A DNA stretch of 7,173 nucleotides, taken from a virus. The translations under genes were made by a program, and so were the position numbers. Positions within the stretch are counted from its first letter, which is position 1, and every line of letters begins with the position of its first letter. Under the pieces are notes generated by a model. That model saw only the letters and a list, made by a program, of their open reading frames with translations. It did not search any database and was not told where the DNA came from. The stretch lies in the UHGV virus genome UHGV-0382498; one strand, written 5' to 3'. Of this stretch, positions 595-7,173 are shown piece by piece.

Positions 595-1405
595 TGTGTT
601 CCTACTTATGTTTTCGGTTCCCGCTTATGCTTCGGTTGCTACGCCTTCCGAAGCGGAAAAAAAGGATACTTCCAATATACCTGTGTCTGGCTCTTTAAGT
701 GACGAGGAATGGGAAGAATTTCAAGAAAGGATGGAAGAAATAAATGGAAGTTCTGACGAAACTGGCTTATCAACCTTCGTTCTTGATGATGTATTTCTGG
801 ATTATATGTATTATCATTTCCGTGACCTCGCTGTTGCTGATATCGCATCTGCATCAAATGCTAAAAAGGCGCCTTTGGATGAAGTACAGGATGTGGATGG
901 CGTGTTGGAATCTGTTGTACCGTATGAAGATATATCCACATATTCGTTACTATCTGCCAATGCTGAGAATGATTATGTTAATTGCGTCCGTTTTGATTGC
1001 GTGGTTGATGGTACGCCGTGTACTCTCCTGTTCCCTTCCACTGACCGGGCGTCCCTTTTTATAGATTCCGATAAACAGCTCTGGAATGTGTCGGATTCCG
1101 TAGTTCAGGGCCTTGTGGTCTATGACAGTTTTGCTCCCAGGTCGGACGAAGGGACGTTGGTATTTATGGCCCCTTGCCTTGGCAATAACTTTTCAAATAA
1201 CCACAACTATGGAAGTCCCAATTACTTCCGCCGTTACTACTGGTCAGGTGGTTCTTATGACCGCCTGAGTTACACGGATACATATGTTATAGTTCGTGTT
1301 GAATCTGCGCCGTTCACGTTCTATTCGGATGATATTATCCAGTATGCTTGTATCCTGATTGGAGGTGCTATTCTGTTATGTTTATTGAAAAAGTCACTGC
1401 GTTAA
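440..1405 (+). CDS. pIII-like minor coat or adsorption protein candidate: a signal peptide (...RRAVHLVSLISVFLLMFSVPAYA|SVATPSEAE), an acidic extracellular domain and a C-terminal TM anchor (IIQYACILIGGAILLCLLKKSLR*)
   Basis: AGGAGG at 426-431 precedes TTG 440 and GTG 443. The core of the signal peptide is homologous to that of the ORF at 5958. The topology (N-terminal signal peptide plus C-terminal TM helix and basic tail) is that of filamentous-phage pIII/pVI-class virion proteins. The true start is uncertain: the signal-peptide n-region begins at an ATA codon (554), not an ATG. Confidence 0.7.
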   Translation: MVIFLRRVLLCRCSYLPLWYPSRGPAVPLVPLSDRPGRINNRRAVHLVSLISVFLLMFSVPAYASVATPSEAEKKDTSNIPVSGSLSDEEWEEFQERMEEINGSSDETGLSTFVLDDVFLDYMYYHFRDLAVADIASASNAKKAPLDEVQDVDGVLESVVPYEDISTYSLLSANAENDYVNCVRFDCVVDGTPCTLLFPSTDRASLFIDSDKQLWNVSDSVVQGLVVYDSFAPRSDEGTLVFMAPCLGNNFSNNHNYGSPNYFRRYYWSGGSYDRLSYTDTYVIVRVESAPFTFYSDDIIQYACILIGGAILLCLLKKSLR

Positions 1406-1524
1406 TCGGCCTTGTCCCTGTCCAGTTCGAACCGCTTGTATATGTGATGGGTTTTATCCTCTTCCTGTGGCTCATTGATGGGTTCTTATGGCTTGCAAAA
1501 TATCTGGTCTGCGGAGGTAGGTGA
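1378..1524 (+). CDS. Small hydrophobic protein, 48 aa (MFIEKVTALIGLVPVQFEPLVYVMGFILFLWLIDGFLWLAKYLVCGGR); below the 60-aa cutoff of the ORF track
   Basis: ATG 1378 has GGAGGTG at 1361-1367 with a 10-nt spacer. The sequence translates cleanly to TGA 1522-1524. It has a TM-like core and overlaps the 3' end of the pIII-like gene by 28 nt, which is typical compact phage gene packing. Confidence 0.5.
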   Translation: MFIEKVTALIGLVPVQFEPLVYVMGFILFLWLIDGFLWLAKYLVCGGR

Positions 1525-1529
1525 TTGAT

Positions 1530-1688
1530 GTGTTTTCGGAAGTCAATGTTGTCGTTGATTGGATTTTTACGCAACTCACCGTGTTTGCCCGTTTCCTTTG
1601 GAATGACTGCGCCTGGGTAGGGGTTTTGTTAATTGTTCTTCCCCTGGTCCGGCGAGTTATTAATATATTCAAACAAATTTTATCTTAA
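1530..1688 (+). CDS. Coat-like small protein, 52 aa from GTG 1530 (or 55 aa from GTG 1521), with an acidic N-terminus, a TM core and a basic C-terminus: MFSEVNVVVDWIFTQLTVFARFLWNDCAWVGVLLIVLPLVRRVINIFKQILS
   Basis: GGAGGT at 1513-1518 lies 11 nt before GTG 1530. Alternatively GTG 1521 overlaps the upstream stop as GTGA, a translational-coupling arrangement. Acidic N-terminus, hydrophobic core, Arg/Lys C-terminus is the major-coat (pVIII) or pVII/pIX pattern. It is missing from the ORF track because it is under 60 aa. Confidence 0.5.
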   Translation: MFSEVNVVVDWIFTQLTVFARFLWNDCAWVGVLLIVLPLVRRVINIFKQILS

Positions 1689-1704: not shown

Positions 1705-1983
1705 ATGTTAAAAATCCGTTGTTTCCTTCGTAAGTATCGGGCCGTTCCTGTCACGTCTGTGGCGGTTGTGTCCATGTCGTTCCCGGCGTTTGCTAGTGAC
1801 GCTAGTCCGGCTGGCATGACTTCCCTGCTGGGTTCCTTCACGGAGGTGGCCGCGTGGATGTGGGCTGAGATTGGCAAGCTTCTTACTTGGGTTCTTGGCC
1901 AGCCTATCCTGCTCCTTGCAATGTCCCTGTTCTTTGTAGGGGCCATTGTATCATTCTTCATCCGTGTATTTCATTCTGTGTAA
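1705..1983 (+). CDS. Major coat protein precursor (pVIII-like), 92 aa: a Sec signal peptide (MLKIRCFLRKYRAVPVTSVAVVSMSFPAFA|SD...) and a 62-aa mature region with an acidic N-terminus, a TM helix and a basic C-terminus (IRVFHSV)
   Basis: AGGAGG at 1691-1696 lies 8 nt before ATG 1705. The signal peptide has a classic n/h/c structure with an AFA↓S cleavage motif. The mature region has the standard filamentous-phage major coat layout. An internal start within the longer track ORF 1633-1983 is preferred because of the RBS. Confidence 0.75.
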   Translation: MLKIRCFLRKYRAVPVTSVAVVSMSFPAFASDASPAGMTSLLGSFTEVAAWMWAEIGKLLTWVLGQPILLLAMSLFFVGAIVSFFIRVFHSV

Positions 1984-2162
1984 GGAGGTAATTGATTATG
2001 ACAGAACTTTTAAATGCGTTTACCCAGGTTGCGGCCTGGATGTGGTCTGAAATCGGCCTGCTTCTTGGCTGGATTCTGAACCAGCCTATCCTGCTCCTTG
2101 CAATGTCCCTGTTCTTTGTGGGGGCGATTGTATCCTTCTTCATCCGTGTATTCCACTCGGTT
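1838..2162 (+). repeat. Tandem direct duplication with a 182-bp period. The 3' roughly 80 nt of each unit (1900-1980 and 2082-2162) are near-identical with only synonymous-type differences, and the 5' halves have diverged.
   Basis: The 38-mer cagcctatcctgctccttgcaatgtccctgttctttgt occurs at both 1900 and 2082. The shadow ORFs on the minus strand (1680-1961, 1958-2143) repeat the same peptide (KNRDIARSRIGW). Confidence 0.85.
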
Positions 2163-2165
2163 TGA
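1998..2165 (+). CDS. Coat protein paralog without a signal peptide (55 aa, MTELLNAFTQVAAWMWSEIGLLLGWILNQPILLLAMSLFFVGAIVSFFIRVFHSV); its C-terminal 27 residues are identical to those of the upstream coat gene
   Basis: AGGAGG at 1983-1988 lies 9 nt before ATG 1998. It is a tandem duplicate of the mature part of 1705-1983. Signal-peptide-less major coat proteins are known (Pf3-type), so this is biologically plausible. It is under 60 aa and so absent from the track. Confidence 0.7.
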   Translation: MTELLNAFTQVAAWMWSEIGLLLGWILNQPILLLAMSLFFVGAIVSFFIRVFHSV

Positions 2166-2173
2166 TGCTTTAC

Positions 2174-2207
2174 TTCCTAGGGGTATAAAAGCCCCTAGGA
2201 ACCTTTT
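2174..2207 (+). terminator. Rho-independent terminator candidate after the coat genes: a perfect 10-bp inverted repeat TTCCTAGGGG-(TATAAAAG)-CCCCTAGGAA followed by CCTTTTGG
   Basis: There is a GC-rich 10-bp stem, an 8-nt loop and a short T-run 2 nt downstream. It sits where Ff-type phages carry the post-gene-VIII terminator. Confidence 0.55.
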
Positions 2208-2218
2208 GGAGGTTTGCT

Positions 2219-2377
2219 ATGATTGAGTTTCTAACTGCTTTTATGGATATATTTTTATACCCGGTATCCCTTACGATAGATTTTGAAAATCCCTTATACT
2301 ATGGCATGATTGCCATATTGGTTACGGCTGGTATTGTATGTATTGTTAGGAGGTTGATTATTGCATGTATATCATAG
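2219..2377 (+). CDS. Small membrane protein, 52 aa (MIEFLTAFMDIFLYPVSLTIDFENPLYYGMIAILVTAGIVCIVRRLIIACIS), immediately upstream of and overlapping the Zot gene
   Basis: GGAGG at 2208-2212 lies 6 nt before ATG 2219. It has a C-terminal TM helix and its stop TAG 2375-2377 overlaps the Zot start at 2365. It could be a pVI-like protein or the membrane partner of the TM-less Zot ATPase. It is under 60 aa and not in the track. Confidence 0.5.
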   Translation: MIEFLTAFMDIFLYPVSLTIDFENPLYYGMIAILVTAGIVCIVRRLIIACIS

Positions 2378-3123
2378 GTTTCATTATGGTTCTGCTGTTC
2401 TGCGTGTTCATGTTCTTTGCCTACCATGCGTTTAAGTATCGCAACCCTTACAAGCTCTATATGTGTTTTGGGCGCAAAGGTTCTGGCAAGACTACTCTTA
2501 TGACAAAGCTTGCTTTGCAATATCAAAAAAAGGGCTGGAATGTTTTCTGTGACCGTGAAATTCCCGGCTGTATACAGTTTGAAACAGAGGACTTCGGCCG
2601 CTATCAGTTCCCACCTAATTCCCTTATCCTGGTTGACGAAGTGGGGCTTGTCTGGGATAACCGCAACTTCAAAAACTTCCCTGAGCATGTAAAGGTATAT
2701 TTCAAATATCAGCGTCAATACCAACATGTTGTATACTTATTTAGCCAGTCCTTTGATATCGATAAAAAGATACGTGACCTCACCGACCATTTGTACATTG
2801 TCCAGAACTTTTTCAACTGTTTTTCGATTGCCCGGCGTGTAACTAAATCCCTCACCGTTGTCCATGCGGATAAATCATCCCAGGGTGAAAGCAAGATAGT
2901 TGATGATTATAACATTGACTCGTTATTGTTTGCCCCCTTCGGCTCAGTCCGCTTTACATACATACCAAAATATGCAAAATATTTCAAAAGCTTTGACCCT
3001 CCCCAGCTCCCATCCTTTGAGGGTTCCCCCCTCCCTGGATTGCCTGCCCTGAGCAAGCGCCAGACGCTGGTCGGCGCGGCGAAGGAAAGGCAGGAAATGC
3101 TGAGATTCTGGAAAAAGCACTGA
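2365..3123 (+). CDS. Zot-family (zonula occludens toxin / inovirus pI-like) P-loop NTPase, the phage assembly ATPase
   Basis: Walker A GRKGSGKT at residues 36-43, a Walker B-like hydrophobic strand ending in DE (SLILVDEV), the size and the position after the coat-gene cluster all match Zot (PF05707-type) N-terminal domains. AGGAGG lies 12 nt upstream. No C-terminal TM segment is present. Confidence 0.85.
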   Translation: MYIIGFIMVLLFCVFMFFAYHAFKYRNPYKLYMCFGRKGSGKTTLMTKLALQYQKKGWNVFCDREIPGCIQFETEDFGRYQFPPNSLILVDEVGLVWDNRNFKNFPEHVKVYFKYQRQYQHVVYLFSQSFDIDKKIRDLTDHLYIVQNFFNCFSIARRVTKSLTVVHADKSSQGESKIVDDYNIDSLLFAPFGSVRFTYIPKYAKYFKSFDPPQLPSFEGSPLPGLPALSKRQTLVGAAKERQEMLRFWKKH

Positions 3124-3124
3124 C

Positions 3125-3397
3125 CTACAACTTCACGTTTCCCTTAACGTCCCCAACAATGACGCCCTTGTTGTTGTCCCCTATAACAACTCCGTTGCTG
3201 TTCTGGACGTGTATTCCCGGCTTCTCTCCTGCCTGCATGTCCTGGGCTATTAGGTCTTTGATATATCCGCTCAGTTTTGTATATCCCTTTTTATTCATGT
3301 GCGCAATGACTTCTGGATACTCTTCTTCACGGATGTAGACTTTTACTGTTTTATATACTTCTTTGTTGTATTCTCTTATATATTCTTGTTTTTTCAT
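3125..3397 (-). CDS. Ribbon-helix-helix (Arc/MetJ/CopG-like) DNA-binding regulator, 90 aa from ATG 3397, with a Gly-rich repetitive C-terminal tail
   Basis: The N-terminus has an alternating beta-strand pattern (YKTVKVYIREEEY), followed by helix A (PEVIAHMNKKGY), a G-x-x-x-x-S turn and helix B (KLSGYIKDLIAQDM). AGGTGAGG precedes ATG 3397. A 12-bp perfect palindrome sits just upstream, so the gene may be autoregulated. The track ORF starts 11 codons earlier at 3430 without an RBS. Confidence 0.55.
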   Translation of the reverse strand: MKKQEYIREYNKEVYKTVKVYIREEEYPEVIAHMNKKGYTKLSGYIKDLIAQDMQAGEKPGIHVQNSNGVVIGDNNKGVIVGDVKGNVKL

Positions 3398-3406
3398 AAC
3401 CTCACC

Positions 3407-3484
3407 TATAGGCCTATATACAAAATTCACATATATAGGGCTATATATTTAGTATATATGCCTATATACATATAGTCCTATATA
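3407..3484. promoter_or_regulatory. Operator/iteron array: four imperfect 14-bp repeats of TATAG(G/T)(G/C)CTATATA at 3407, 3434, 3455 and 3471. The first is the perfect palindrome TATAGGCCTATA (3407-3418). The array lies in the divergent region between the RHH gene and the + strand ORF 3628.
   Basis: The repeats can be read directly from the sequence. They sit upstream of the RHH gene's RBS and are spaced 27, 21 and 16 bp apart. RHH repressors typically bind tandem or palindromic sites of this kind. Confidence 0.5.
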
Positions 3485-3627
3485 TGTTATACTGTAGTTA
3501 CAAGTTAATAAATGATACTTAAAGTTCCAGTAGCAATGAGAACATGGCAGTGTAGTAGTGAGAACTGGACATTAGGTATCAACCTAAGTATAGCAAACGA
3601 TTCAAGAATTTGAAAGGGGAAAATGAT

Positions 3628-4126: not shown

Positions 4127-4219
4127 GGTTGGATTTAGGCAGAAATACTGCCCTCCCAGGTTGATGTAAACGCCCTGGGCGGTACGTTGATAATAGAATA
4201 TTGAAAGGAAGGTAATTTT

Positions 4220-4465
4220 ATGAAAGTTAAGGTATTAGGTATTCAGTCTGTTGATTATGTCAGCCGTAAGACTGGTAATCCCGTTAAGGGGGTTACACTG
4301 CATTCGGCATTTAAGGATGCGCAGGTGGAAGGGGAATCCGTTTCCTCTATCTTTGTCAGCGACAACTTGAATCTTAAGTGTGTCGCTGAGATTCGTCCCG
4401 GTATGCTGGTGGATGTGGAATACAATAACCGTGGCTATGTCTGTGATTTGGCTATCTGTAAGTAA
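4220..4465 (+). CDS. Hypothetical 81-aa protein immediately upstream of rep. It could be the ssDNA-binding (pV-like) protein, but that rests on size and position only.
   Basis: AAGGAAGG at 4207-4214 lies 5 nt before ATG 4220. The predicted beta-rich composition (MKVKVLGIQSVDYVSRKTGNPVKGVTLH...) and roughly 80-aa size resemble gene-V-type proteins. There is no motif-level proof. Confidence 0.5.
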   Translation: MKVKVLGIQSVDYVSRKTGNPVKGVTLHSAFKDAQVEGESVSSIFVSDNLNLKCVAEIRPGMLVDVEYNNRGYVCDLAICK

Positions 4466-4490
4466 TCTGCTTTTTTGCATTTCTCCTTTA

Positions 4491-4666
4491 GCTGGCTGTC
4501 CTGTCCTGGTCCAGCCAGCCCCTTGCGGACAATATCCGCATTTCCTTGTCTACTCTCAGTTCCAAGCCAGCCAGCGGTTTTGATTCGTCATTACGTGGAA
4601 TGCCTACGTTCTGCCATTTCCCCGCTGGGGATGGCTTGTAAAACCCCCGTAGGGTAATACGGGGGT
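4491..4666. promoter_or_regulatory. Structured intergenic region upstream of rep. It has a hairpin GCTGGCTG-(13 nt)-CAGCCAGC (4491-4519), a second CAGCCAGC copy (4568-4575), a hairpin GCGGA-caata-TCCGC (4525-4539) and a strong hairpin ACCCCCGTA-GGGTAA-TACGGGGGT (4643-4666) 12 nt before the rep RBS.
   Basis: The inverted repeats were read from the sequence. There is no long ORF with an RBS; the track ORFs 4380-4583 and 4475-4657 span these hairpins and are probably spurious. This is a candidate origin, packaging signal or attenuator. Confidence 0.4.
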
Positions 4667-4688
4667 ACTAAATACATTGGAGGTTGGG

Positions 4689-5732
4689 ATGGAAGGAAAC
4701 TTAATAACCCTGGATAACGGGTTAGTCGTATCCGTTGACTGGCTGTCGTTCACGGTCATGTCAACGGCTGATGTTGTGGATGTGCTGGATATGTTCGGCT
4801 ATGTGATGGATGATTTCACACGGATGCCAAGGGGCGCACGTGGCTACAAGACCATGTTCCGGCTCAATGGCTATTCCCTTTCGGTTCTCTGTGACGGTAA
4901 TCCCGGCATGGGTATACATATTGATGTGGCTGGCTCCGCCATCGGCGAACTGGTCCGTAGCTTTTCGGAAACTTTGAAAGTGGATACCCCCTTCGGTGAG
5001 GGGTATGATATAGATTTTGACAGCACCTTCATGGTGGCTCTCCTGGAACGCATACGGGATAATGGTCATGTTACCAGGATTGATGTGGCGATTGATGATA
5101 TCGGCTGTAATTATTTTACCACGGATGATGTGTGCGGCCTGTATGGGAATACCCAGATTGTCTCAAAATTCCGCAACATGCGTAATGTTGTTGAATCCGA
5201 AGTCTCAGGTAAGAAAACAGGCCATACGGTATACTTTGGTAGCCGTACAAGTGACATATTTTTGAGGGTATACGATAAGCAGTTGGAACGCAACCGTAAG
5301 CTGTCCGCATCCGGTACCCATATTGATAATCCTTGGGTACGCTGGGAACTGGAACTTAAGAATGACCGGGCGGTCAGTGTATCCAAGATGCTTACGTCTG
5401 GTATCCCCTTGGGTGCTGTAGCTGTCGGTGTTTTGGGGCATTACATGAGGATGATTGAGCTTGATGATATCAACCGTTCAAGGTGTTCTACACATTCTGT
5501 CTGGGCTGATTTCATGGACGGGATATCGTCACTCAAGATAACGGTCGCAAAGTATGAAAAGACCATGGACGAGAAAAAGACCTGGATAAAAAGACAGGTC
5601 ATGCCCACCCTCGCCGCTGTCATCCTGGCAGATGGTGGTAGTCTTGAATTTGTGGAAGATAACTTGGAAAACGGTCTGAACCGTATGAATAAGTCATTAT
5701 ATAAAATGGCAATGGTTGAATTGGGTGGTTGA
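4689..5732 (+). CDS. rep: Rolling-circle replication initiation protein of the Rep_trans family (PF02486-like), 347 aa from ATG 4689
   Basis: GGAGG at 4679-4683 lies 5 nt before ATG 4689. The protein has family-type motifs: an N-terminal VDWLSFTV, RIDVAIDD, TVYFGSRTSDIFLRVYDK (a Tyr-containing block of the kind that carries the catalytic Tyr in this family) and WVRWELELK. The track ORF begins 12 nt earlier at TTG 4677. Confidence 0.85.
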   Translation: MEGNLITLDNGLVVSVDWLSFTVMSTADVVDVLDMFGYVMDDFTRMPRGARGYKTMFRLNGYSLSVLCDGNPGMGIHIDVAGSAIGELVRSFSETLKVDTPFGEGYDIDFDSTFMVALLERIRDNGHVTRIDVAIDDIGCNYFTTDDVCGLYGNTQIVSKFRNMRNVVESEVSGKKTGHTVYFGSRTSDIFLRVYDKQLERNRKLSASGTHIDNPWVRWELELKNDRAVSVSKMLTSGIPLGAVAVGVLGHYMRMIELDDINRSRCSTHSVWADFMDGISSLKITVAKYEKTMDEKKTWIKRQVMPTLAAVILADGGSLEFVEDNLENGLNRMNKSLYKMAMVELGG

Positions 5733-5772
5733 TATAGATTACAACTATCTCGTTAAACTACTGTTTCGCAAA

Positions 5773-5828
5773 TAGTTGCAGACAGGCGCCGTCCGGCGTG
5801 AAATTAGAAGTCCGGCGCCTTGCAACTA
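5773..5828. promoter_or_regulatory. Large composite hairpin downstream of rep. The outer stem is TAGTTGCA/TGCAACTA and the inner stem AGGCGCCG/CGGCGCCT (with a 3-nt bulge), around a 21-nt loop that contains a direct repeat of TCCGGCG. This is a candidate origin of ssDNA-to-dsDNA conversion or a packaging signal.
   Basis: Sixteen base pairs of stem can be read from the sequence. Adjacent are an additional inverted repeat CAACTAT (5742-5748)/ATAGTTG (5772-5778) and a palindrome TTTCGCGAAA (5847-5856). It lies in the non-coding 225-nt gap between rep and the next gene. Confidence 0.4.
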
Positions 5829-5878
5829 CCACCCTTATGGATGGGTTTTCGCGAAACATTGGGCCGTTTAACGAATAG

Positions 5879-5908
5879 TTGGTATTTATAACAACAATTC
5901 TATATAAA
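5879..5908 (+). promoter_or_regulatory. Candidate sigma-A-type promoter for the large downstream gene: TTGGTA, an 18-nt spacer, then TATAAA
   Basis: These are the only -35/-10-like hexamers in the AT-rich stretch before the RBS at 5944. This is a weak inference. Confidence 0.2.
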
Positions 5909-5957
5909 TCGATTGAAAACCCATTTAATAACTGAATAAATATAGGAGGTGGTTTCT

Positions 5958-7173
5958 GTGAGGTGTAAACGCTTCATGGCTGTTCTTGTTGCGCTTTCCT
6001 TATCGGTACTGTTTGTCTTTCCTGCGTTTGCATCCGTTGCTACGCCTTCCAATGCCTTACCGTCTGAATCATATCTTGGTTTTGTTCAGTCATTGGACGA
6101 ATATGCGGATGTTGCAACATCCAGTAATGCGACTCTATCTCAAGATTATATGGAAACGGATGGTTTTGACGCATTGGAAGCCCCTGTCCTTATGTCGTCT
6201 GGTGACGATTCCGTTGTTAATACGGTCAATCTTACCTCTGTCCAGATGTGTCTGTCTTATTATGATATGGCTGGGGTCATCCGTTATAAGGAGGTATGGT
6301 TGGATAAGAATGGTTATGCTTCCATGTCACTTCCTTCTGACTATGCATCACCTATATGGTTTGGTTTTGTCCTGCATAAAGGTGCATTACCTCCGGCTGG
6401 TAAATATAAGATGTCTGTACATTTTGGTAGTAACACTAACATTGTATATCAGTCCAGTTCCATCTGGTTTGGTGTCAGGCGTAATAATGTAAGTCAGCAG
6501 GAATCCAATTATTATGTTGATGGTTATTACTCCTCTGGCGATTTTAGGCTTTCTACTGATTTATCCATTGGTGCTTCTACAAGCCAGCTTAATATATCTA
6601 ATTTTTTGGCTTATGACTCTCCTGCACCGCCATATGGTGGCTATGTCAGCATTAATTTTACCCGTCTTTCCGGTGATGCGCCTGTACAGGGTGGTTCCCC
6701 TGATTCCGGCAATGTTGACCAGGACATTAACCAGAGTATTTCTAATAATACGGCCCAGCAGGTGGAACAGGGTGATACTATCATCGAATTAATAAAAAAT
6801 ACCATTCAGACTATTTCTTCTCAGCTTACGGCTTTTTGGAATCAGCTTGCTGGAGAGTTCACTAATCTTTACAATAAAATGAACCAGCAACATTCTGAGC
6901 AATTACAGGCCGACCGTCAAAATACAGACGATATGATAGCCGCTGGGGAATCGAATACCACGGACATTATCAATAACAACAACGCCAATACCGATAAAAT
7001 CACCAACGGTTATGATAACTCTGGTATGCTCTCTGAGAATGACCGATTAAACAATTCCCTTGATGAATACCAGAAAAAAGAGGATGAAGTTTTTAATCAG
7101 GCAAAGGATAAAGTCAACTCGTTTGAGTATGGCAATCACTTCGATAAGTTCACGGCTCCGCTGGCTGATATAT
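5958..7173 (+). CDS. Large secreted protein of at least 405 aa, 3'-truncated by the window end. It has a signal peptide (MRCKRFMAVLVALSLSVLFVFPAFA|SVATPSNA), a beta-rich middle and an Asn/Gln/Asp-rich, coiled-coil-like C-terminal region. It is a candidate receptor-binding (pIII-like) virion protein.
   Basis: AGGAGGTG at 5944-5951 lies 6 nt before GTG 5958, with an in-frame ATG at 5976. Frame 0 stays open to position 7173. I re-translated it manually; it is not in the supplied ORF track, presumably because it has no in-window stop. Its signal peptide and mature N-terminus SVATPS match those of ORF 440-1405. Confidence 0.75.
   Translation, partial: MRCKRFMAVLVALSLSVLFVFPAFASVATPSNALPSESYLGFVQSLDEYADVATSSNATLSQDYMETDGFDALEAPVLMSSGDDSVVNTVNLTSVQMCLSYYDMAGVIRYKEVWLDKNGYASMSLPSDYASPIWFGFVLHKGALPPAGKYKMSVHFGSNTNIVYQSSSIWFGVRRNNVSQQESNYYVDGYYSSGDFRLSTDLSIGASTSQLNISNFLAYDSPAPPYGGYVSINFTRLSGDAPVQGGSPDSGNVDQDINQSISNNTAQQVEQGDTIIELIKNTIQTISSQLTAFWNQLAGEFTNLYNKMNQQHSEQLQADRQNTDDMIAAGESNTTDIINNNNANTDKITNGYDNSGMLSENDRLNNSLDEYQKKEDEVFNQAKDKVNSFEYGNHFDKFTAPLADI

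Follow-up and report, generated by a model that had tools for sequence, protein, structure and literature searches.

The stretch of DNA analysed here, which we call the window, comprises 7173 nt and is a complete circular inovirus genome (7.2 kb) or a circular permutation of one. Circularity follows from an open reading frame that crosses the window ends: ORF-A (439 aa) starts at position 5976, runs off the end of the window and finishes at position 122. The element is assigned to the inoviruses because a Rep_trans rolling-circle initiator (4677-5732; Pfam E = 9e-59) and a stand-alone Zot/pI-like morphogenesis ATPase on the plus strand (2365-3123; Pfam Zot E = 3.3e-6, above the gathering score; PHROG 197, Zot-like) are combined on a circular 7.2-kb genome, and its relatives are annotated as Inoviridae. 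The only phage record close to the window, Dulem virus 64 from lemur faeces (annotated Inoviridae), has only the module of Rep and the ssDNA-binding-like gene in common with it, at 87% identity (window 4135-5880 versus positions 1768-3519 of the Dulem record, L001). The structural module of Dulem virus 64 is unrelated, evidence that inoviruses which otherwise differ have exchanged their replication module.

The structural cassette of the window runs in the order secreted ORF-A, o72 (134-352), secreted ORF-B (440-1405), o58, o55, g1, g2, o52 and Zot. Gene g1 (1705-1983, plus strand; 92 aa, TAA stop) is preceded by the Shine-Dalgarno (SD) site AGGAGG at 1691-1696, 8 nt before the ATG, and the anti-SD duplex of this site (-13.1 kcal/mol) is the strongest in the cassette. 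The encoded protein begins with a 30-residue signal peptide, MLKIRCFLRKYRAVPVTSVAVVSMSFPAFA (1705-1794), with predicted cleavage after AFA. The predicted mature protein consists of an extra tail, SDASPAG (1795-1815), which is not found in g2; the N half of the core, MTSLLGSFTEVAAWMWAEIGKLLTWVLG (1816-1899), an amphipathic helix that has diverged from g2; and the C half of the core, QPILLLAMSLFFVGAIVSFFIRVFHSV (1900-1983 with the stop codon), which holds a membrane-spanning helix and an Arg/His end. Gene g2 (1998-2165, plus strand) is a leaderless paralog of 55 aa, with its N half at 1998-2081 and its C half at 2082-2162; its own AGGAGG (1983-1988), which is spaced 9 nt from the ATG, overlaps the stop codon of g1.

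The first-pass annotation had described these genes as tandem paralogs of which only one has a signal peptide, and the pair is indeed real, intact and correctly placed. The g2 protein and residues 38-92 of g1 can be aligned without a gap (45/55 identical, BLOSUM62 score 239), Met1 of g2 standing opposite the internal Met38 of g1, and a repeat finder independently returned a 143-nt direct repeat (1837-1979 versus 2019-2161, 83% identity). Nucleotide alignment bore out the near-identity of the 3' ends: over the last 27 codons (1900-1980 versus 2082-2162), 74 of 81 nt are identical, the 7 differences are synonymous and the peptides are the same, with differing stop codons following. The 5' parts have diverged, as had also been noted. 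The first 28 core codons show 65% nucleotide identity and 9 replacement changes, and all 10 amino-acid differences of the pair fall here: the N half diverges, and the C half is kept the same. No SD site lies upstream of Met38 of g1, which makes translation from this internal codon unlikely.

An AlphaFold2 model of g2 (mean pLDDT 92.5) contains two helices, at residues 2-27 and 30-54, with a break at N/G-Q-P. The first helix is amphipathic (muH 0.30) and the second is strongly hydrophobic over core residues 30-49 (Kyte-Doolittle 2.5). The charged residues of the N part are E3 and E18 in g2, and one D, two E and one K in g1; g2 contains no Lys at all, and its single Arg is near the end.

Small ORFs flank the pair. 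Upstream, o58 (1378-1524, plus strand) is a small membrane ORF and a candidate minor coat protein, with a conserved MFIEK start, a C-terminus ending in ...CGGR and a position that is kept in the cassette; half of its homologues have a TTG or GTG start. The ...YLVCGGR end of o58 is kept as GGR or GG in homologues and recalls ...AGGQR, which we take to be the end of Ff pVII. It is followed by o55 (1521-1688, plus strand; likely start GTG at 1530; 47-55 aa), a small ORF and a rival coat candidate, whose product has an acidic N-terminus, a short hydrophobic segment and a basic C-terminus, RRVINIFKQILS. Downstream of g2, the small membrane ORF o52 (2219-2377, plus strand; N-terminus MIEFLTAF) overlaps the start of the Zot-like gene. 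We considered o52 and the other small ORFs as distant g-family paralogs and rejected this, with hhalign probabilities of 20% or less (top: g versus o55).

Directly after g2 lies a GC-rich 10-bp hairpin (2175-2184/2191-2200) followed by CCTTTTGG, a terminator- or attenuator-like element on the plus strand (2175-2208) with a fold energy of -22.4 kcal/mol (z = -3.4). A simple terminator scan did not call the window hairpin, which has only 4 T. Despite this, we regard it as relevant because it is conserved across loci: a hairpin follows the last g copy in 22 of 22 loci examined, whatever the copy order, with unrelated sequences and often with a T-run.

A sequence search of 5.8 billion proteins yielded 121 clusters of the g family at 90% identity. 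About 90 clusters are long forms of 91-99 aa, in which the leader is followed by a short tail rich in A/S/G/P/T with a net charge of -1 to -2. A further 22 clusters of this list, besides g2 of the window, are forms of exactly 55 aa that start at the core Met, and a few forms of 60-67 aa have an acidic tail and no leader; those of 62-63 aa lacking the signal peptide carry a tail like that of the long forms. The C half of the core, QPILLLAMSLFFVGAIVSFFIRVFHSV, is almost invariant across the 121 clusters. Four core residues (W14, E18, G42 and R50) are invariant and two more (P30 and H53) are almost so, distant members ending instead in R..K or RVKRS. The sources consulted for the 121 clusters gave no functional name for any g-family protein. 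A profile search of 1.84 billion representatives returned 95 hits, each a representative of clustering at 50% identity, and with the 121 clusters these make up a new, unannotated coat-like family for annotation pipelines. The peptide SDASPAGMTSLLGSFTEVAAWMWAEIGK is proposed as a query for gut metaproteomes. Judging from where family members lie, the hosts are Clostridia, since Lachnoclostridium sp. An14 and a Clostridiaceae MAG both harbour prophage copies, and one short form is found on 708 contigs, including one from an Alitiscatomonas MAG.

The arrangement might be taken for a peculiarity of one phage; instead, it is a clade-wide variable array. About 40 related loci have the same cassette with a g array of 1-3 copies, and the forms occur in every combination. 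The order long-short is found in the window and at least 10 other loci, long-short-short in six loci and short-long in three, and one locus has the short form only. The two prophages combine a short form with a leaderless 62-63 aa form, and the long form alone is present in a more divergent sub-clade and in the complete genome of bajarodino virus 30. Either form can therefore stand alone, as both long-only and all-leaderless genomes exist. Every array copy is intact, with an ATG (27/27) and an SD site (median -11.5 kcal/mol).

Comparison of the two halves of the core across genomes revealed opposite patterns. In the N half, long copies are nearest to long copies of other genomes and short copies to short ones, with an ortholog identity of 0.79-1.0 versus 0.61-0.75 for paralogs of the same genome; the Lachnoclostridium prophage is the one clear exception. 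Class-specific N-half signatures recur across genomes, such as K21/G28 in the long and L21 in the short copies. In the C half the pattern is reversed, with substitutions peculiar to a lineage recurring in the paralogs of one genome: both copies of one locus (L020) have Met33, all three copies of two others (L004 and L036) have Ser35, and the copies of the Lachnoclostridium prophage (L006) share six changes. Nucleotide identity of the C halves averages 0.86 for copies of one genome and 0.75 for copies of different genomes.

Because the N halves group by type across genomes, the long/short split is judged to predate the divergence of these phages. The recent duplication proposed in the first-pass annotation does not agree with this: each class, long or short, has its orthologues in phages with Zot proteins that are only ~70-87% identical, and dS between g1 and g2 of the window is 0.44 in the C half and saturated in the N half. 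The gene conversion proposed alongside it fared better, as the higher C-half identity within genomes makes some homogenisation of the 3' half likely. Two explanations fit the C-half pattern: gene conversion that takes place now and then and only in the 3' half, or co-adaptation among subunits required to match one another. In either case, strong purifying selection is superimposed. Nei-Gojobori dN/dS is ~0.10 among short copies and ~0.13 among long-copy cores, and in some within-genome pairs 11-16 of the 27 C-half codons differ synonymously with 0-3 replacements.

Taken at face value, the high similarity of the 3' ends alone could suggest that a recent duplication left g2 behind as a decaying copy without function. 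We consider this highly improbable. The g2 ORF is intact, with an ATG and AGGAGG; its 55-aa orthologues are present in about 30 protein clusters and in many loci, one of them on 708 contigs; short copies evolve under a dN/dS of ~0.10, and the C halves of the window pair differ by 0 replacement versus 7 synonymous changes; and leaderless forms occur alone in some genomes. A degenerating second copy in relatives, which the first-pass annotation had named as the observation that would overturn its proposal, was looked for, and the copies proved to be intact. The translation signals, the low dN/dS and the conservation of the pair in many genomes argue that g1 and g2 are both functional, long-maintained genes.

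The N-terminus of g1 has five K/R among its first 12 residues, a 17-residue hydrophobic stretch and A-F-A before Ser31. A small-x-Ala motif (AxA, SxA or VxA) stands at the aligned site in 92 of 92 long homologues, and the remainder of the leader is highly variable. Residues 1-30 of g1 thus have the pattern of a typical signal peptide, of the M13-procoat type, and are probably cleaved off. The predicted cleavage would yield a 62-aa protein that equals a g2-like protein with the 7-residue tail SDASPAG. A recent copying of the g1 leader from the two large secreted ORFs is unconvincing, as the similarity amounts to only ~19 nt around the PAFA site. The g2 sequence, for its part, has the features of a Pf3-type leaderless protein: no leader, a negative N-terminal tail without basic residues and a positive C-terminal tail. 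Many short orthologues of g2 carry Lys17.

From the presence and absence of the leader, the first-pass annotation had derived a Sec signal peptide and two insertion routes, which overstates the case. A cleavable leader does not imply Sec: the M13 procoat has one and is nevertheless Sec-independent and YidC-dependent, like the leaderless Pf3 coat (PMC2172118). Because of this precedent, g1 and g2 need not use different machines, and the difference between them may lie in signal-peptidase processing alone.

Several features suggest that g1 and g2 encode the major-coat-type subunit of the virion. Inovirus major coats are expected to be ~30-90 aa long after removal of the leader and to have one hydrophobic membrane-spanning segment (PMC6813254); the predicted mature g1 (62 aa) and g2 (55 aa) both lie in this range and have one strongly hydrophobic helix. 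The g2 model is almost wholly alpha-helical, as inovirus major coats are, and acidic residues are confined to the N part of the 55-62 aa g proteins. Inovirus major coats are also expected to end in a basic stretch that neutralises the DNA, where the g proteins have just Arg50 and His53. In the cassette conserved in ~40 loci, the g array is placed between small membrane ORFs and the Zot-like gene. In Ff phages the gene order is gVII-gIX-gVIII-terminator, and among the virion proteins only pVIII and pIII have a cleavable leader. The position of the g array is coat-like because its order, two small leaderless membrane ORFs followed by the array and a hairpin, mirrors this arrangement. Moreover, the g family is the one that is duplicated (2-3 copies) and elaborated in the cassette. 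That the g proteins would be the most abundant in the virion is hinted at indirectly by the strong ATG and SD signals of the copies and by the hairpin behind the array.

In database comparisons, neither g1 nor g2 gave a significant match to Pfam or PHROGs; weak matches to DUF3487, TrbC and Phage_coatGP8 stayed below threshold and probably reflect hydrophobic composition. Sub-threshold matches to Phage_coatGP8 (PF19199) were obtained with 4 of 49 family members, the best being a long member (18.5 bits versus a cutoff of 24.6; E = 0.002), and g1 and g2 themselves had no match to it. A profile search of PDB sequences with the g family returned only chance GPCR segments, and a Foldseek search of the PDB with the g2 model returned no match, the 55-residue two-helix model being too simple. 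The term 'major coat' of the first-pass annotation describes a property that we infer, no significant match to any coat family having been obtained. Its label 'DNA-binding' is unsupported, the C-terminus having only the invariant Arg50 and the near-invariant His53.

An alternative is that g1 and g2 are membrane proteins of the virion or of its assembly but not the major coat, and that the filament body is made of o55 (1521/1530-1688). Its acidic N-terminus and its basic C-terminus, RRVINIFKQILS, with 3-4 basic residues, represent a more classical charge layout than that of the g proteins, whose C-terminus is weakly basic (one Arg and one His) and whose conserved mid-chain proline is atypical of known major coats. 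The g membrane helix also exceeds most of the cassette in conservation (identity to the counterpart in the Lachnoclostridium prophage is 73% for g2 and 55% for Zot), the family has no detected homology to known coats, and its ectodomain-bearing relatives, described below, resemble an adsorption protein with a coat-like anchor. On this alternative, g1 and g2 might be minor or tip proteins, or membrane partners of Zot/pI at the extrusion site in a host without an outer membrane. However, o55 never bears a leader, has the weakest SD site in the cassette (-9.1 kcal/mol, versus the median of -11.5 for g copies) and abuts or overlaps the o58 stop, like the low-abundance pVII and pIX of Ff. The conserved hairpin comes after the g array, and it is the g family that is amplified to 2-3 copies with strong ATG and SD signals. 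Most inovirus major coats are leader-bearing, and single-copy genomes of this group retain the leader-bearing g. We therefore regard an o55 filament as unlikely, though a serious contender, and give the same low credence to a minor, tip or Zot-partner role of the g proteins. On balance, we lean slightly towards g1 and g2 being functional, long-maintained paralogs of a major-coat-type subunit, analogous to Ff pVIII.

The leader-bearing class also includes much larger proteins. Among the 95 profile-search hits, 13 (among P0140-P0204) are proteins of 206-283 aa in which the g core forms the C-terminal 55 residues; ahead of it come a leader, a linker that is acidic and modelled at low confidence, and a beta-rich domain, the ectodomain (~150 aa). 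The AlphaFold2 model of such a relative has a mean pLDDT of 65.8, and Foldseek gave only generic Fn3/C2-like beta-sandwich matches (E > 0.07). Three metagenome contigs (L043, L044 and L045) have the same cassette, with 1-2 leaderless copies of 54-61 aa adjoining the ectodomain copy. Because the leader-bearing copy carries a linker and a beta-rich domain ahead of the same core, the arrangement implies that the N-terminus of this paralog would be exposed outside the cell or virion. It also suggests that the leader is needed to export a larger hydrophilic N-terminal extension. A 78-aa family member (P0129) is an apparent chimera of an o72 N-terminus (MFAFFDSVAAIFQTVVNFVV) and the g-family core, and may be a fusion or recombinant of two small structural genes.

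We propose the following model for the window phage, in which the insertion route, the co-assembly in one virion and the DNA contact are what we infer from the genes. Both g1 and g2 would reside in the host membrane, with the N-terminus outside, the amphipathic helix at the surface, one membrane-spanning helix and the Arg/His C-terminus inside. The g1 precursor would be cut after AFA, losing its 30-residue leader and leaving a 62-residue protein with a 7-residue acidic tail; g2, with 55 residues, would insert without a leader, as the Pf3 coat does. The Zot/pI-like ATPase would then assemble g1 and g2 onto the extruding ssDNA in one filament. The identical C halves would pack together into an invariant inner layer facing the DNA, and the diverged N halves would form a mixed outer surface. 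Subunits that fit one lattice would be expected to have N halves that are orthologous by type and C halves that share changes within a genome.

Alternatively, both genes may encode the major coat and be redundant, serving dosage or robustness to differences between hosts, for instance in signal-peptidase or insertase capacity, with any mixing in virions incidental. Copy number and type vary freely among the loci, each form suffices alone, and translation signals are equally strong in both, all of which would agree with redundancy. By contrast, the class-specific N-half signatures (K21/G28 versus L21) are kept across genomes, both classes are under purifying selection, and N-terminal elaborations have arisen repeatedly in the long class, the largest being a beta-rich ectodomain. 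These three observations argue for differentiated surface roles over pure redundancy, which we consider improbable. We tentatively hypothesize, as a possibility that falls somewhat short of being probable, that natural mosaic capsids are built by filamentous phages infecting gut Clostridia, from 2-3 differentiated paralogs of the major coat. Their C halves would be matched within each genome by gene conversion or co-adaptation and their N halves would be separate orthologous lineages; the leader-bearing paralog would act as the display scaffold and the leaderless one as the bulk subunit. The N-terminal extension of the leader-bearing paralog ranges from 7 residues in the window to an acidic linker and beta-sandwich domain in related phages.

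Known filamentous phages offer partial parallels. As is predicted for g1, pVIII of Ff phages (M13/fd/f1) is a small alpha-helical protein whose precursor carries a cleavable leader that ends in small-x-Ala, and like the g proteins it has an acidic N part, a hydrophobic middle and a positive C-end, the last only weakly basic in the g proteins. Its gene, like the g array, comes after two tiny leaderless membrane ORFs and before a hairpin or terminator, and Ff assembly likewise depends on a pI/Zot-type ATPase. The g proteins differ from pVIII in that they have no detectable sequence homology to it, carry Arg and His at the C-end in place of four Lys, have a conserved mid-chain Gln-Pro hinge and occur in 2-3 differentiated copies; in addition, the window phage has a Gram-positive host (Clostridia), and no secretin. 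The major coat of Pf3 (44 aa, leaderless, YidC-only insertion) resembles g2 in having no leader, one membrane helix, an acidic N-terminal region free of Lys and Arg, and a short, positive, aromatic-rich C-tail (SFFIRVFHSV in g2, IRWIKAQFF in Pf3). However, the N-terminal region that g2 would have to translocate is, at 29 residues versus 18, longer than in Pf3 and far more hydrophobic, the two proteins are not homologous, and Pf3 has a single coat gene.

Engineered type 88 display vectors contain two gene VIII copies in one genome and produce mosaic virions. Like the window phage, they combine two coat genes in a filamentous-phage genome, with the lattice-forming part shared and one copy bearing an N-terminal extension behind the leader, an extension that amounts to a whole ectodomain in related natural phages. 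The window arrangement differs from these vectors in being natural and conserved and in having a leaderless second copy, and mosaic assembly is here proposed from the genes alone.

To our knowledge, the filament body of all characterised inoviruses is built from one major coat protein. Our literature search found no report of tandem major-coat paralogs in inoviruses; what it returned was limited to general surveys of inoviruses and work on archaeal filamentous viruses that have two coat proteins. Roux et al. described family-specific inovirus coat proteins, not arrays (PMC6813254). Filaments of two coat proteins encoded side by side are known only from archaeal filamentous viruses such as SFV1 (PMC6105669) and lipothrixviruses. 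These viruses are unrelated to the window phage and have dsDNA genomes; their coat heterodimers wrap A-form DNA and are not membrane-inserted subunits assembled by extrusion. If the proposal is true, this would be the first multi-subunit inovirus capsid, and nature would have its own version of type 88 phage display; with differentiated coat paralogs in a conserved array, the one-coat picture would have to change for filamentous phages of Gram-positive and gut bacteria. Since two forms of nearly the same membrane protein are encoded together, the array also lets leader-dependent and leaderless insertion be compared naturally within one cell, and it suggests a natural route to surface variation, or to the display of adhesion or receptor domains, on filaments persisting in the human and animal gut.

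Additional features were observed in the remainder of the window. ORF-A (439 aa; 5976-7173 and 1-122) and ORF-B (440-1405) each encode a large secreted protein that is anchored at its C-terminus; ORF-A has a signal peptide. In this pair the phage seems to have two pIII-like proteins. The two ORFs have a 46-nt stretch in common (609-654 versus 6010-6055, 76% identity), which covers the leader end and 'SVATPS'; the TTG of ORF-B at 440 would give a pre-cleavage region of 65 residues. Four copies of a 16-nt repeat resembling TATAGGCCTATATACA lie at 3407-3486, including an inverted pair (3429-3451/3465-3487). They are located in the 5' end of, and just upstream of, a minus-strand 101-aa ORF (3125-3430), in the region between it and the plus-strand genes, and look like an operator array for a phage repressor. 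Terminator-like T-run hairpins are present at 4524-4540, just after the 81-aa ssDNA-binding-like gene, and at 5956-5979, immediately before and overlapping the start of ORF-A.
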